DNA of 45,308 bases, filler included, from Sphacelaria rigidula (taxonomy: Eukaryota): assembly GCA_964200075.2 (NCBI GenBank). It is 2 parts of 2 records of this genome, joined end to end, with 100 filler letters (N's around TTAATTAATTAA, not from the genome) between each part and the next. Parts side by side here need not be neighbours in the genome. Positions count along the whole stretch, not along the records: positions 1 to 22,606 come from CAXNAA020000325.1; 1 more part is not named here. One strand, given 5' to 3'. The notes under the pieces are model-generated. The model made no database searches, was not told the origin of the DNA, and worked only from the letters and a program-made list of their open reading frames with translations. A program made the position numbers and the translations under genes. Positions within the stretch are counted from its first letter, which is position 1, and each line of letters begins with the position of its first letter. Positions 3,388 to 29,760 of the stretch are shown one piece after another.

Positions 3388-3467
3388 TTCCCGTTTTTCA
3401 GAATCAAATTTCCGTCTTTCAGAATCAAATTTCCGTCTTTCAGAATCAAATTTCCGTCTTTCAGAAT
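3388..3467. repeat. 21-bp minisatellite, about 3.8 copies
   Basis: (tttccgtctttcagaatcaaa)n. Confidence 0.95.
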
Positions 3468-10082: not shown

Positions 10083-10133
10083 GTTGTTGTTGTTGCTGTT
10101 GCTGTTGTTGTTGTTGTTGTTGTTGTCGTCGTC
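10083..10133. repeat. (GTT)n microsatellite
   Basis: gttgttgttgttgctgttgctgttgttg...gtcgtc. Confidence 0.9.
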
Positions 10134-15158: not shown

Positions 15159-16576
15159 GCATGGACTTCACCGCTCATGCGATACCGTGACTTTACCACG
15201 TCCCTACGGAATGGACAGTCCGTCGCCGATAGACATTGATACATCCTACTCTTCGATCGAGTCGACTTGAGTGAATTTCTTATCCTACATTTCAAGGTGT
15301 ATCATTTACTCATTCATCTCTCGTCTCCTGGTTTCGTTGAGTCTATGTGTGCAGAGTAGGTCTAGCATTCAGCAAGGCGCTGACTTTAGCGTCTCGCATG
15401 AAGAGGCAGGAATGCCAGTATGTGTTACTTTTGTTCTCATAACCGGTGTTTTCGAGGTGCCTTCTCCTCAGTACGTCGTATTTCTGAGCTCTCGCTTGGT
15501 GGATGGGCCGATATTGACCGAGAACAAAGTAGGATTCCGTACATTTTCGGTAGAATTGCCGACTCATTCATGGAGAGATCAAGTGTGGTTGTTTTTTGTA
15601 GTGCAGTTTCACGTGCTTGTTCGATTAGTTCACGTACTCGTGTGGTGCATGCATGTCAACGGGTTTTGCGGATACTGAAGGTTTGTATCCATCCGTCGCC
15701 GAGAATCCAACCTGCCTTCTGAGGCCCGGAGTCCTCGGGCGGTTGTGTCACTACGCACTACTACATCGGCAGCAAGTAATAATACAGAAATATTCAGTAT
15801 GGTACTTATGACGACGACCCTGAAATGCTCTCAAGCATACCACTCCTTACGATCAGATAGCTTGAGTAGAGTGGAGGTAGTTTTAGAGACACCTGTACTA
15901 TACATACATTCGAATTTTGTCAAGCTTTCTGCATGACGCAACTCACGACATCGAAGGGTGGGCTACGAATTCCTTGTAGAGGCTCGAGATCTAACTTTCA
16001 ATGACGAAAACAAATACATCTCGTAGTTTGTTTTTCGATCGATACCATTTACCCGTACTGCTGTTTTCGGCCGTAGTGTATGGCATGTGTTGGTGTTACG
16101 TTTTACATGAGCTGCCCAATCCAGTGGAGAGTCCAGTGCAGGAAATATACAGGGTTTTGCCAAGTTCACCACCAGAAAAATCAGCTGCACCACGTTCTGT
16201 TTTGGAAATGGAACGTTCGACAAAGCAAACGCCTCACAGATCTTATCACATAGTGAAGGCCCATTTAAGGTATAAACAGCCTGTGTGTGCCATGCTTCCT
16301 CGAAGTTCTGTATGTCGCGGTTGACGAACACTTGGCAATCTGGACGGCTTTTGAACCGTTTGATATCCTCAGGCAACATCAGGAGGAACTGCCTGCTTGT
16401 CTTGTTCGGCCATGTGGCAGTGGGACTGCTAGAAGCGGCCGAAATTGTGTGCGCTAAAGCCTCTCGCTCTAGGGGTGATACGAGCTTGGCAGTGCCCCTA
16501 GGAGGGCTGCTTGAAATGGCCATCAGATGGCGTGACGGGCGTCAACGTCGTGAAGGTGTCGGCGAACAGGGTTGGG

Positions 16577-18885
16577 ATGTTTGATGAAGTGAGCAAGGAT
16601 TGCGGGAACGACAACTGCTCCAAGAAGCCATCGTACGGTGTAATGGGAAGCCGGAAGGCGGAGTTCTGCGCCGCCCACGCCAGTTCGAGGATGACCACTT
16701 TGACGAGCAAGAAGTGCGGCAACGAGGGCTGCTTCAAATACCCATCTTACGGTGTAGAGGGAAGTCGGAAAAGGGAGTTCTGTGCCGTGCACGCCAGGCT
16801 GGGAATGGTGAACGTATCGAACAAAAAGTGCGGCAACGAGGGCTGCTCCAAAGTCCCGTCGTATGGTGGTAGCGGGAAGTCGGTTGGCGGAGTTCTGTGC
16901 CGACCACGCCAGGTCCGGGATGATAGATGTGAGGAGCAAGAAGTGCGGCAACGAGGGCTGCTCCAAACAATCATCTTACGGTGTTGCGGGAAGTCGGAAG
17001 GCGGAGTTCTGCGCTGATCACGCAAGGGCGGCGATGGCCAATATCGTGAGGAAGAAGTGCGGCAACGGAGACTGCTCCAAAGTTCCGTCCTACGGTGTAG
17101 CGGGAAGTCGGAAGGCGCAGTTTTGTGCTGATCACGCGAGGGTGGGGATGGCCAATGTAATGAGCAAGAAGTGCGGCGAGGGCTGCTCCAAACTCGCGTC
17201 CTACGGTGTAGCGGGAAGTCGGAAGGCGCAGTTTTGTGCCGACCACGCGAGGGTGGGGATGGCCAATGTAGTGAAGAAGTGCAGCGACGAGGGTTGCTCC
17301 AAACTCCCGTCGTACGGTGTAGCGGGAAGTCGGAAGGCGCAGTTCTGTGCCGACCACGCGAGGGTGGTGGGGATGGCCAATGTAGTGAAGAAGTGCAGCG
17401 ACGAGGGCTGCTCCAAACTCCCGTCGTACGGTTTGGCGGGAAGTCGGAAGGCGGAGTTCTGTGCTGATCACGCCAGGTCCGGGATGATGGATGTGAGGAG
17501 CAAGAAGTGCGGCAACGAGGGTTGCTCCAAACAACCATCTTACGGTATAGCGGGAAGTCGGAAGGCGAAGTTCTGTGCTGATCACGCGGGGATGGGAATG
17601 GTGGATGTGAGGAGCAAGAAGTGCAGCAACAGGGGCTGCTCCAAAGTTCCATCGTACGGTGTAGCGGGAAGTCGGTTGGCGGAGTTCTGTGCTGACCACG
17701 CCAGGTCCGGGATGATAGATGTGAGGAGCAAGAAGTGCGGCAACGAGGGTTGCTCCAAACAACCATCTTACGGTGAAGCGGGAAGTCGGAAGGCGCAGTT
17801 TTGTGCTGATCACGCGAGGATGGGAATGGTGGATGTGAGGAGCAAGAAGTGCAGCAACAAGGGCTGCTCAAAAGTTCCATCGTACGGTGTAGCGGGAAGT
17901 CGGGAAGGCGCAGTTCTGTGCTGATCACGCCAGGTCCGGGATGATAGATGTGAGGAGCAAGAAGTGCGGCAACGAGGGCTGCTCCAAACAACCATCTTAC
18001 GGTGTAGCGGGAAGGCGCAAGGCGCAGTTCTGTGCTGATCACGCGAGGGTGGGGATGGCCAATGTAGTGAGCAAGAAGTGCAGCAACGAGGGTTGCTCCA
18101 AACAACCATCTTACGGTGTAGCGGGAAGTCGGAAGGCGGAGTTCTGTGCCGACCACGCGAGGGCGGGGATTGCCAATATCGTGAGGAAGAAGTGCAGCAA
18201 CGAGGGCTGCTCCAAACTCCCGTCGTACGGTGTAGCGGGAAGTCAGAAGGCGCAGTTCTGTTCTGATCACGTGAGGGTGGGCATGGCCAATGTAGTGAGC
18301 AAGAAGTGCGGTAGCGAGTGCTGCTCGAATTGGCATGTGTACCACGTTGATGACGTCAAACAGGGTAGCGCATGCCAACATGCCGTATTTCAAGCGGCCA
18401 AGGGAGGGCAACATGGAGACATGTTAAATGTAACTTTCACCCAGGATGGACAACCCAATCATTCCACTAGTCACAAGGGTGGTGCGTGTGATGTCGGCTT
18501 CGGCTCTGTCTTGCTTGTACGGTCCGAACTTGTTGGTTCGCAGCTTCCCGAGGGCGCTGAAGGAGGACCTTTGGGGACAATACCGCACGCGAGGGTGAAG
18601 TCGGAAGAATCTTCCCCCCTTCAGCATCTGGAGCAGAGCCTGCAGATGAGGGTTTGCGTGGCCACTTACTCTGCTGAAGGTGGGAGCAGCAGGATTGGCA
18701 GTAACTCCAGAGATAGTTGTGGTGGAAGAATGAAGAAGCGGATTTGCAAGGCGCAATCTCTCGTTCGTGAACACGTTCGGCCAGAAGATGCCCCTGTGAA
18801 TTCTTCCTCGGTGGTGTTCCAAGGGAAGGAGGAAGGCTTGAAGGTGGAGCTGGCAGTTTCGGCTCCGCTGCCCCCCCTTGCGTAA
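16577..18885 (+). CDS. EsV-1-7 cysteine-rich repeat protein (putative CCCH zinc-binding array): 15 full + 1 degenerate 38-aa repeats plus a low-complexity C-terminal tail; two +1 frameshifts (16868, 17904), so either a pseudogene or sequencing error; about 768 aa if corrected
   Basis: ORFs 16511..17017, 16863..17924 and 17941..18885 join into one array of MxDVRSKKCGNEGCSKxPSYGVAGSRKAEFCADHARxG (C-x4-C-x16-C-x2-H). This is the motif of the EsV-1-7 family (Ectocarpus siliculosus virus-1 ORF7; Ectocarpus IMMEDIATE UPRIGHT). The ATG at 16577 starts the first intact unit; TAA at 18883-18885. Confidence 0.9.
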
Positions 18886-22606: not shown

Positions 22607-22706
22607 NNNNNNNNNNNNNNNNNNNNNNNNNNNNNNNNNNNNNNNNNNNNTTAATTAATTAANNNNNNNNNNNNNNNNNNNNNNNNNNNNNNNNNNNNNN
22701 NNNNNN
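22607..22706. other. Assembly gap with artificial six-frame-stop linker
   Basis: 44 N + ttaattaattaa + 44 N = exactly 100 bp. Confidence 0.95.
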
Positions 22707-27197: not shown

Positions 27198-28706
27198 ATG
27201 GCAACGCGCAAGAAAGTGGGTGATGGCGATGCAGGCGAAGAGGTGAAGTTTAAGTTTACTGAGCTTATGCCTGCAGGATCGCTGAAAGCCCCAGAGTACG
27301 GACGGCATATTAGCGAAAATGCGTCCCGACGTTTTTACCAGAAATATGTCGAGTATGAAGAGGCGGTCAAAATGAACAACAAAGGGCGTAGTATGCAGGC
27401 CGACTTACTGACTGTTACTGAACTAGTGCCGAAGCACATCCGTGCGTGTTTGTCACGCACGAGTTTTGACGGATCCGTGCTAGGCGAAGATGATCTCAAG
27501 GAGGCACTAGGCCGACACGCGTAATGTTGGGAGGATGAAGAAATTGATCCTTCAGTCGCTGCAGCTGGTGTGCGGAAAGCGTTCGCGGCCCGCAACGAGC
27601 AAACTGCAATGGGAAGAGTAGAAGGGCAGTGGGGTGCCCTGAAGGAATTTTTTGCGGAGAATGCTAGCGCTGAGCGTGCGTTCCGCGATGATGCAGATTT
27701 CAAACCAGGATCTGCTCAAATCATAACACGTGAAATGTTGAATGGACTAACCCCCCCCCCCCCCGAATTCAAAACTTAAGTCCTCAACATGTTGAACATG
27801 AAGGGGAGGTGGAAGGAGGACCCTGGGCTTGTGTTTAACACGGCTCGGGAAGCAGCGGAGGCATGGCAGACGGTGGAAGCGGCGGATAAGCAGCGCCGTC
27901 AGCAGCCGCAGCTGAAACAAAGGAGTGGCAGCAGGACTTCCGGAAGCAAGCGCCAACCAAATGGTGGGAAAACGGCGAGCAGTGGAAATGGGACTGTCAG
28001 GTCCGGGAAAACCCGCAAACCAGGCTCAAACTATGCAGAATGTTTAATATGTGGAGACAAGGGCCATTTCCGGAAGGAATGCAGGCAGCAAGGCCAGGCT
28101 GCTGCTACACAACGTCGTGACAGTGGGTAGACAAAGGCTGGCGACAAGCAGCAACAACAATAGCAGCTGTCGCAGGGCCCAGGACAGGTGCCTCGCGGAG
28201 GGGGCACGAGTTCCGCCCCTACAAGGGCTGTCTTTTCAGCCGATGGACAAAGTGCTCCCAGCGGAGGGGCGACGTTGCCACAAGAACCGGCCGCTTCTAC
28301 TGGTGGCGTGCAGCAGACCATCTCCTCGCACTCGTTCCCAGGTTCGAAATCTGCGGCGGTGCCAGCATGGAGATCGCTCAAAGCGGGTGAAGTGTCAGGT
28401 TTTCAATCTGAGGGTCTGCAAGTATATCACAAGGAAAGGTGGTGCCTTGCGGACTTGTCTGTCCCGAGTGCAGGGGCAAAGGGTGTTTGTCCGGTCACGG
28501 CAATTTTAGATTCAGGATCTGGACTTACGACCATGTCAGCTGGTGTGGAGGCGAAATTGCAAGCCATGGTTCCAGATGTCCAAGTGGTGAGACCGATGGC
28601 TGGTGACCAGTTGGTGAAATTGGCAAATGGCAACGTTGAGCTTGAGACATTGTCTTTGAGTGTCGATGTTCAAGGTTGTTCGCGTTATTGTTTTTGTGGA
28701 ACATGA
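27198..28706 (+). pseudogene. gag: gag-protease polyprotein pseudogene (one frame, four in-frame stops, pol deleted after about 28640)
   Basis: ORFs 27198, 27570, 27789 and 28188 are all in the same frame; CCHC knuckle CLICGDKGHFRKEC at 28041-28082; retropepsin motif AILDSGSGLTTMS (D at 28509); stops at 27522, 27777, 28128, 28161. Confidence 0.85.
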
Positions 28707-29167: not shown

Positions 29168-29760
29168 ATTATCATCATCATCATCATCATCATCATGATT
29201 ATTATTTTTTTATTTTTTTATTTTTTATTTTTTTTATTTTTTTTTATTTTTTTATTTTTTTACTATTACTATTACTATTACTATTACTATTACTATTACT
29301 ATTACTATTACTATTACTATTAATTTTACTATTATTATTACTATTATTATTACTATTACTATTACTATTACTATTACTATTATTATTACTATTATTACTA
29401 TTACTATTATTACCATTATTATTATTTCTATTATTACTATTACTATTATTACTATTATTATTACTATCATTATTAATATTACTATTATTGTTATTACTAT
29501 TACTATTACTATTACTATCACTATTACTATTACTATTATTATTACTATTACTATTATTACCATTATTATTTCTATTATTAATATTACTATTATTGTTATT
29601 ACTATTACTATTATTATTATTACTGTTATTACCATTATTATTGTTATTATTACTATTATTACTATTATTATTATTGCTGTTGTTGTTGTTGTTGTTGTGG
29701 TTGTTGTTGTTATGATTGTTATTATTGTTATTATTGTTATTTTATTATTTCCGCCCATTA
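29168..29760. repeat. Compound microsatellite (CAT)n / T-rich / (TATTAC)n / (TAT)n / (GTT)n
   Basis: Seen directly; produces the spurious poly-Leu and poly-Ile ORFs. Confidence 0.95.

Follow-up and report, generated by a model that had tools for sequence, protein, structure and literature searches.

A frameshifted EsV-1-7 repeat array of Sphacelaria rigidula and a variable, acid-poor patch that may contact DNA in the EsV-1-7 family

The window analysed here, a stretch of 45,308 nucleotides of Sphacelaria rigidula (assembly GCA_964200075.2) of which positions 1 to 22,606 come from CAXNAA020000325.1, harbours one tandem array of zinc-type repeats at 16591-18326. Tandem Repeats Finder assigned this array a period of 114 nt, 15.3 copies, 82 % matches and a score of 1918. 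Translation revealed 15 units of about 38 residues, each of the form Cys-x4-Cys-x16-Cys-x2-His-x12, with one degenerate unit at each edge. The array is split over three open reading frames (ORFs), and all three pieces matched Pfam family PF19114 (EsV_1_7_cys), at 419.5, 139 and 110.8 bits (cut-off 25; E 8e-129). This bears out the assignment to the EsV-1-7 family in the original prediction, which had been made from the sequence by eye; array and assignment are far beyond chance. The locus is a new, broken member of a known, very large family of Cys3His repeats. One type member of this family is reportedly the developmental regulator IMMEDIATE UPRIGHT (IMM), said to have been described by Macaisne et al. 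in 2017, the other being the EsV-1-7 gene found in EsV-1, a virus of Ectocarpus. Comparison across the family revealed a reproducible signature: positions 9, 11, 35 and 36 of the repeat resist homogenisation within arrays and exclude acidic residues. Position 9, the residue after C-S-K, is called X below, and units 3-15 are referred to as the core units. The parts of the locus are as follows.

16502..16600, + strand: degenerate edge unit, "unit 0" (...CLKWPSDGVTG...VGMFDEVSKD), from the three-frame translation; the frame opens after a stop at 16499-16501.
16601..16828, + strand: units 1-2 (X = K, Y), edge units and the most diverged, with 69-80 % nucleotide identity to the others.
16829..16943, + strand: unit 3 (X = V), 115 nt, with frameshift 1, from the unit DNA alignment and the ORF switch.
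16944..17849, + strand: units 4-11 (X = Q,V,L,L,L,Q,V,Q) in a single frame; Pfam finds 10 stretches in ORF 16863-17924.
17850..17964, + strand: unit 12 (X = V), 115 nt, with frameshift 2, from the unit DNA alignment.
17965..18306, + strand: units 13-15, read in frame three (X = Q,Q,L); Pfam finds 3 stretches in ORF 17941-18885.
18307..18885, + strand: degenerate last unit (CGSECCSNWHVYH...) and a tail of ~190 amino acids up to the stop, from translation; the tail has no recognisable domain.
16747..18414, - strand: antisense ORF of 555 amino acids, the longest here, from the ORF listing; the PF19114 matches are on the sense strand.

The Cys and His ligands are complete in all 15 units and the C-x4-C spacing is kept in 14 of them, unit 6 having C-x3-C. 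Unit 6 also lacks two codons, and unit 7 carries one added Val codon and misses another codon. An ATG at 16577, the position taken as the start in the original prediction, lies inside the degenerate unit 0, with 8 residues between it and unit 1. The original prediction spoke of 15 near-identical CCCH units; number, period and family were correct, but "near-identical" was generous, the nucleotide identity between units ranging from 69 to 96 %. An alternative period of 457 nt was also reported, and a four-unit higher-order repeat was therefore considered. This period matches no better than the 114-nt one (80 % versus 82 %), so no strong four-unit order is present, just local duplications in which units 9-10 are similar to 11-12 and unit 6 is similar to unit 7. 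The closest database proteins are 51-60 % identical, and those with a species name are brown algal (Sphacelaria, Ectocarpus, Pylaiella, Laminaria and Scytosiphon). Pfam gave no zf-C2H2 match in the array ORFs. No further EsV-1-7 motif was found elsewhere in the 45-kb window, and a Pfam scan of the 75 other window ORFs of at least 110 amino acids yielded nothing recognisable, and no transposase, beyond one sub-threshold zinc knuckle; the array therefore belongs neither to a viral insert dense in genes nor to a gene cluster at this locus. The 555-residue antisense ORF is a mechanical by-product of the codon make-up of a stop-free repeat and not a coding strand. No stop interrupts it at or between the two frameshifts, and gene callers could be misled by it. 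A nuclease in the tail (18307-18882) was looked for and none was found, with an hhalign probability of 0.06 % against the viral nuclease alignment described below and PF19114 as the only Pfam family in that ORF. Weak BLAST matches of the tail at 18650-18800 (best E 0.13) include the C-terminal tails of six S. rigidula EsV-1-7 proteins, which hints at a short tail motif that the window ORF may have in common with these proteins.

The original prediction missed two breaks of the reading frame. The units can be read only through three frames, in ORFs 16511-17017, 16863-17924 and 17941-18885, the single open frame having been lost because of one additional G in unit 3 and one in unit 12. Frameshift 1 lies at 16868/16869 (ggtGgtagc versus ggtgtagc in the other units) and frameshift 2 within 17902-17904 (tcgGgaagg versus tcggaagg). 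The two insertions sum to +2 and do not compensate each other. Contigs of four public sequencing runs were aligned to the window. A contig of run X6, which belongs to another study than the best-matching runs, covers 17874-17955 including the extra G with 0 differences and 0 gaps, and frameshift 2 is therefore real in independent data. No RNA run was listed as matching the window; run X6 may itself be RNA, but the bins 16300-16386 and 18562-18648, to which its contigs give no cover, carry no weight as to expression. None of the contigs of the four runs showed an indel at either frameshift, though one was reported at 16500. The window copy is most likely a recently decayed pseudogene. An intron bypassing the frameshifts was considered and none was found; loose ends and joints of contigs that are absent from the window were read as paralogue contigs, not as splice junctions. 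At position 16500, just upstream of the array, an A>C change together with an inserted G occurs in one contig of each of three DNA runs, these contigs having between about one quarter and one third of the depth found locally. This variant is either an allelic form of the array's 5' edge or a close paralogue of it.

Translation of the 15 units gave the X series K,Y,V,Q,V,L,L,L,Q,V,Q,V,Q,Q,L, identical to the one in the original prediction. The associated claim, that each repeat has a single hypervariable residue, did not hold. In the core units the entropy is 1.88 bits at position 29 (S4 A2 V5 M2) and 1.67 bits at position 32, both above the 1.58 bits of position 9 (V4 Q5 L4), followed by 1.31 bits at position 35 and 1.30 bits at position 21. 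With all 15 units included, position 29 (2.09 bits) and position 9 (2.07 bits) are nearly equal. By a hand sum, ~9 % of the amino acid differences among units fall at position 9 and ~48 % at positions 27-36. Divergence among units amounts to 0.289 at synonymous sites (pS) and 0.117 at nonsynonymous sites (pN). After removal of codons 9, 29, 32 and 35 the ratio of nonsynonymous to synonymous divergence (dN/dS) is 0.22, which indicates that the repeat scaffold was once under purifying selection. At the four removed codons pN is 0.48-0.59, about twice the synonymous level, with 0.55 at codon 9. X is thus not the single hypervariable residue, and the pN excess is common to codons 9, 29, 32 and 35.

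The three X states of the core units each come with their own synonymous Pro and Ser codons: CAA CCA TCT for Q, GTT CCA TCG for V and CTC CCG TCG for L. The units fall into the subfamilies {3,10,12,8}, {9,11}, {6,7,15} and {4,14} at 90-96 % nucleotide identity, and the nearest unit carries the same X in 10 of the 13 core units, the exceptions being chimeras. Unit 8, for instance, resembles unit 7 in its N-terminal half and units 3, 10 and 12 in its C-terminal half. Four different linker types accompany Q at X. The linker S-G-M-(I/M)-D-V-R-S-K-K precedes a Q unit in all four of its occurrences, and M-G-M-V-D-V-R-S-K-K precedes a V unit in both of its two, an association that results from a two-unit duplication (units 9-10 resembling 11-12). 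X states are inherited with unit subtypes and do not arise from hypermutation at X. The reshuffling amounts to unequal crossing-over of the ordinary kind between a small number of old types of unit. The semi-independent recombination of X and linker noticed earlier was thereby corroborated, with unit halves being reshuffled.

An exhaustive profile search at E <= 0.001 returned 9997 representatives of the family, and the variability of the repeat was studied in two samples. In the first, 149 relatives were cut into 1017 units with a 38-residue unit profile. Units with all four ligands and at most 2 gaps were kept (654; 363 were dropped), leaving 73 proteins with at least 5 good units as usable arrays and excluding 76 proteins. 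The second, less redundant sample consisted of 130 further proteins, representatives of 50 %-identity clusters from the exhaustive search, with 770 good units out of 1194 and 104 usable arrays (26 proteins dropped). Globally, position 9 has an entropy of 3.41 bits in the 654 units and ranks only fifth, after positions 7, 14, 25 and 2; it is therefore not the most variable site of the family, which by this measure is the outcome that the original prediction had named as refuting it. Within arrays it does rank first. In the 73 arrays the mean pairwise difference within an array is 0.81 at position 9, 0.78 at position 35 and 0.75 at position 36, and in the 24 most homogeneous of them these three positions (9/35/36) keep values of 0.78/0.70/0.71, the next position reaching 0.50. 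The ratio of within-array to between-array difference is 0.95, 0.93 and 0.91 for positions 9, 36 and 35, whereas the ratio is 0.75-0.81 for positions 2, 4, 7, 24, 25 and 29, whose diversity between arrays is just as high. The 104 arrays of the second sample gave within-array differences of 0.81 (position 9), 0.80 (36), 0.78 (11) and 0.78 (35), with 0.73 for the next position, and ratios of 0.96 (9), 0.94 (36), 0.93 (11) and 0.92 (35). In its homogeneous arrays (n = 31) the differences are 0.73 at position 9, 0.71 at 11, 0.68 at 36 and 0.63 at 35, again with 0.50 for the next. Position 9 is joint top in 21 of 73 and in 24 of 104 arrays. Asp and Glu together make up 1.5 %, 0.1 %, 1.8 % and 5.1 % of the residues at positions 9, 11, 35 and 36 (1424 units) versus 13-42 % at ten other variable positions. 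Conserved basic residues of the unit are K8, K37 and K/R38.

In six pairs of related proteins with 71-86 % identity (a seventh, redundant pair of an Ectocarpus trio was left out), X differs in 9 of 30 paired units, positions 35, 29 and 11 differ in 10 of 26, 10 of 29 and 10 of 30, respectively, and position 28 is similar. The X string RWQG is unchanged in the Ectocarpus trio of related proteins. Nine close pairs of orthologues from giant viruses, with an overall rate of change of 0.19, showed changes at position 9 in 30 of 83 paired units; positions 3 (33 of 72), 36 (21 of 47), 4 (35 of 80) and 35 (24 of 58) change more. In all, about seven other positions, 3, 4, 7, 25, 35 and 36 among them, change at least as much as position 9 in these viral pairs. 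No single position behaves like the repeat-variable residue of a TALE.

The structure of the repeat was modelled with AlphaFold2 for units 7-11 together with 60 aligned relatives (pLDDT 87.9, pTM 0.48; the metal is not in the model). Within a unit, residues 12-14 and 32-34 are predicted to form short strands, residue 22 a bridge and residues 24-26 a three-residue helix. Searches for a solved relative gave 0 matches with phmmer against the PDB sequences and 0 chains at Z >= 2 with VIA-align. Foldseek with the array model found nothing at E <= 0.001, its weak rows (all E > 1) being LIM, PHD, FYVE and ArfGAP zinc domains. These searches indicate neither novelty nor a known fold. Positions 9 and 11 would directly follow the Cys1-Cys6 knuckle, and positions 35 and 36 would come right behind the last strand and 2-3 residues ahead of the knuckle of the next unit; the four variable positions could therefore surround one knuckle.

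A link with DNA came from giant viruses. No relatives of the single protein of the window were found in viral contigs; a degenerate DNA pattern of the repeat alone then succeeded, recovering 15 loci in the viral contigs of IMG/VR, numbered L001-L015. An ORF with at least 2 repeats is present at 12 of these, and 11 of the 12 end in a domain with the motif ...RPD...ECDExQH...FxRxNPD, the twelfth (L008) being cut by the contig end. The viral ORFs are 495-749 amino acids long and combine 8-15 EsV-1-7 repeats with a C-terminal domain in which RPD...ECDExQH...NPD is invariant. L002 and L003 have identical translations, as have L004 and L013. Four of these fusion ORFs, found with the repeat pattern, are located as follows.

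L014:2408-4654, + strand: giant-virus fusion ORF.
L001:1204-3000, - strand: giant-virus fusion ORF.
L006:1490-3427, + strand: giant-virus fusion ORF.
L011:2-1486, + strand: giant-virus fusion ORF.

Pfam recognised PF19114 alone in the viral proteins (E 1e-88 to 1e-164) and left the C-terminal domain unmatched, and a profile search of this domain against the PDB sequences gave E 0.87. Structural comparison of its model by VIA-align with 48,161 chains ranked the catalytic domain of I-Bth0305I first (3r3p_B, Z 8.3, rmsd 3.2, 95 of 98 residues), followed by Vsr with DNA (1cw0_A, Z 7.6) and by 3hrl_A (Z 7.2). By its best matches, the predicted domain to which the giant-virus arrays are fused would have a Vsr/I-Bth0305I-like nuclease fold. 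Among close viral relatives the nuclease-like part is the better conserved, its last 170 residues being 83-98 % identical versus 77-93 % for the whole protein. The truncated L008 ORF (L008:2282-3622, + strand), on a contig of a giant-virus metagenome-assembled genome, ends inside a very homogeneous array of 10 units (C-A-H-P-D/N-C-T-K-X-P-x-F...) with the X series K,Q,I,R,I,H,Q,Q,I, and looks like the window array; among the 5 units compared, pN at its codons 36, 11, 21, 9 and 19 is 3-4 times the array-wide pS. The DNA-binding region of I-Bth0305I is the one that precedes the catalytic domain on its N-terminal side (PMC3239194), and the Ectocarpus Tc1/mariner transposase TcMar-2_Ec32 bears an N-terminal EsV-1-7 domain (PMC12477816). 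A scan for fused domains covered 81 of 279 family proteins, those with the largest non-repeat parts. PF19114 was the only family in 75 of the 81; the other Pfam matches were ELO, ETF, C2H2, DUF723 and an overlapping Zf_WRKY19, the ELO and ETF matches probably being merged gene models. Judged by analogy with these fusion architectures, the evidence being circumstantial, DNA binding would be the best-supported job of the repeat. Of the nucleic acid-binding module proposed in the original prediction, this much has gained circumstantial support (variable acid-poor patch, viral fusions to a nuclease-like domain, transposase fusion), and DNA binding via a multi-residue patch is plausible, but the one-residue, TALE-like code did not stand. 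Targeting of transposable elements or viruses by the array is not supported.

The explanation preferred here combines a decayed PF19114 array, turnover by crossing-over and a DNA-contacting patch of several residues, and as a whole it is given an even chance of being correct. Each repeat would be a small zinc module in which a basic, acid-free surface patch flanks the zinc knuckle. The patch would comprise positions 9 and 11, which follow the second Cys, together with 35 and 36, which precede the first Cys of the next repeat. It varies between repeats and would most likely contact DNA. The array would read its target in the manner of polydactyl C2H2 fingers, with several residues per module, not with one as in TALEs. 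The window array would have expanded and been rearranged through unequal crossing-over and gene conversion involving a few subtypes of unit, processes that alone would yield the Q/V/L pattern at X. The two +1 frameshifts disable the gene as assembled, leaving most likely a recently decayed pseudogene. A wider proposal, possible but doubtful, is that EsV-1-7 arrays constitute a further natural class of modular DNA readers, with the 9/11/35/36 patch setting the contribution of each unit to the target. Giant viruses would use them to aim Vsr-like homing nucleases, and in brown algae they would have multiplied to give regulators by the hundred, including IMM, the window array being a recently disabled example with Q/V/L, S/A/V/M and R/V as surviving specificity variants.

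Several observations weigh against the preferred explanation. Within the window array the variable positions are 9, 29, 32 and 35, while positions 11 and 36 hardly vary, a pattern that half-fits the patch of the family. That X is exposed, and that positions 9, 11, 35 and 36 cluster together, is putative. The excess at position 9 within arrays is moderate (0.81 versus 0.67-0.73), and since the sampled arrays are related and the first sample was chosen by likeness to the query, Wilcoxon p-values overstate the independence of the arrays. The model of the viral C-terminal domain has a pLDDT of only 66.5, its Foldseek rows, almost all PD-(D/E)xK nucleases, are weak (best E 0.017), and the nuclease fold match at Z 8.3 is middling. 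No nuclease or transposase domain was found in the 81 scanned family proteins, and the tail of the window gene itself is without a nuclease. As to the decay, frameshift 1 is spanned by no contig piece among those listed and is merely not contradicted, and none of the 15 units contains an in-frame stop, so the damage is very recent or partly assembly error.

The last two observations favour an intact, functional gene in which one or both G insertions are assembly or consensus errors or are confined to a single haplotype, as do the nature of the lesions, each of which lengthens a G run by one, and the past purifying selection on the scaffold (dN/dS 0.22). Such a gene is somewhat unlikely, for the run X6 contig from a different study reproduces the extra G of unit 12, no indel was reported at either site in four runs that did reveal one at 16500, and the insertions, at +2 in total, do not restore the frame. 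A question that concerns the family more than the locus is whether the repeat binds nucleic acids at all. EsV-1-7 arrays could be scaffolds for proteins or other non-nucleic-acid ligands, like LIM, PHD and RING domains, with the patch selecting protein partners. The weak Foldseek rows of the array model belong to zinc domains of this type, most scanned family members (75 of 81) carry no Pfam family besides PF19114, and V and L are poor base readers. Protein partners are nevertheless considered unlikely, given that the variable patch is depleted in acidic residues, with K8, K37 and K/R38 conserved, and that the array stands on the N-terminal side of a putative nuclease fold in 11 of the 12 viral cases, and of a transposase in another. 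In such enzymes the N-terminal position is usually taken by the DNA-binding part. The Ectocarpus members of the family were likewise reported to have no other Pfam domain (preprint 10.64898/2026.04.27.720984), which fits a protein scaffold.

Two further alternatives concern the variable positions as such, and between them they attribute to X either too much or nothing. In a TALE-like programmable reader X alone would specify one base or ligand unit and the order of the units would set the target. Such a code would fit the placement of X within the otherwise invariant block C-S-K-X-P-S-Y-G, the first rank of position 9 for within-array variability in both family samples, the similar C-T-K-X-P array of L008 and the conserved RWQG string of the Ectocarpus trio. 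It is highly improbable in view of the remaining data: positions 29 and 32 are as variable as X in the window array and four positions, not one, stand out family-wide; X takes no more than three states in the core units, V and L both being aliphatic, and these states are inherited with the unit subtypes; viral orthologues change position 9 no more than positions 3, 4, 7, 25, 35 and 36, and in the six protein pairs X differs as positions 11, 28, 29 and 35 do; the predicted unit is a beta/loop zinc module and not a helical repeat; and the window copy is frameshifted. The opposite reading holds that positions 9, 11, 35 and 36 have no functional meaning and are the least constrained surface sites, at which crossing-over shuffles old variants. 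X states do co-segregate with synonymous markers and unit subfamilies, and the global entropy of position 9 is unexceptional. This too is quite unlikely, because homogenisation within arrays affects positions of equal or higher entropy (2, 4, 7, 14 and 25) but spares 9, 11, 35 and 36, because unconstrained sites would not bar Asp and Glu almost completely, and because codon 9 has a pN of 0.55, roughly double the pS of the array as a whole (0.29).

Tandem arrays of small zinc modules are also found in polydactyl C2H2 proteins (KRAB-ZNF, PRDM9), and in this respect EsV-1-7 arrays are alike. Polydactyl C2H2 arrays evolve by unequal crossing-over, and the fingers of one array differ mainly at a few positions that face the ligand, their scaffold being homogenised. 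A C2H2 finger (C-x2-4-C-x12-H-x3-5-H, beta-beta-alpha) differs from the window unit in ligand order, spacing and predicted fold. TALE repeats of Xanthomonas and Ralstonia are helical hairpins of 33-35 residues without metal, in which nearly all variation is found in residues 12/13. They have in common with the window array that many similar repeats carry variable residues in a constant frame, but the window unit has 38 residues, a Cys3His ligand set and predicted strands plus a three-residue helix, and at least 4 of its positions vary equally. The giant-virus arrays belong to the same PF19114 family as the window array and vary similarly within arrays at positions 9 and 11; their proteins end in a nuclease-like domain, which the window gene lacks, and their units are mostly of 37-38 residues and rich in G-G-K-G-R-F-C. 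Members of the EsV-1-7 family in general share with the window array the tandem C-x4-C-x16-C-x2-H-x12 repeat and the lack of any other domain. For IMM five repeats are quoted (preprint 10.1101/2024.02.19.579948), versus 15 in the twice frameshifted window array. A specific N-terminal domain ahead of the repeats would mark an IMM orthologue; in the window, the ATG at 16577 and unit 1 are only 8 residues apart. TcMar-2_Ec32 has the same EsV-1-7 domain at the N-terminus of a transposase (PMC12477816), whereas the window has no transposase.

The EsV-1-7 family has undergone a huge expansion, its members often lying in clusters and numbering 234-335 in some species (preprint 10.1101/2024.02.19.579948), and two preprints describe it as the largest orthogroup across brown-algal genomes (preprints 10.64898/2026.04.27.720984 and 10.1101/2024.02.19.579948). 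In the literature an EsV-1-7 protein is still called "of unknown function". In agreement with the original prediction, which knew of no established ligand, none was found in the literature searched, nor was an analysis of variable positions, preprint supplements and the 2017 founding paper excepted. The window array alone adds little, being a broken copy whose variable residue is not unique. At the level of the family it is hypothesized that the 9/11/35/36 patch is the repeat-variable, acid-free part of a DNA-reading zinc module, which was not found described in the literature searched. The signature and the viral fusions to a nuclease-like domain name residues to swap and proteins to assay, and make the question of the ligand of this domain testable.

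The remainder of the window showed few other features, and no Rfam match was obtained within it. Two runs of 44 N, at 22607-22650 and 22663-22706, are filler joining the two parts of the window. An imperfect (TTG/CTG)n run at 10085-10128 encodes poly-Cys in one frame and is unrelated to the Cys-rich repeats. In otherwise featureless surroundings, a 153-nt unit is duplicated in tandem at 2243-2541 (2 copies, 91 % matches) and a 21-nt unit is repeated at 3391-3467 (3.7 copies, 98 % matches). The sub-threshold zinc knuckle mentioned above (PF13696, E 6e-4, 20 bits versus a cut-off of 27) lies in an ORF at 27780-28127 (+ strand) with a G-rich skew, which may be a decayed retroelement Gag. An ATTATT microsatellite of ~93 copies occupies 29198-29749, and because of it the 29-30 kb bin is the most AT-rich of the window (GC 0.276).

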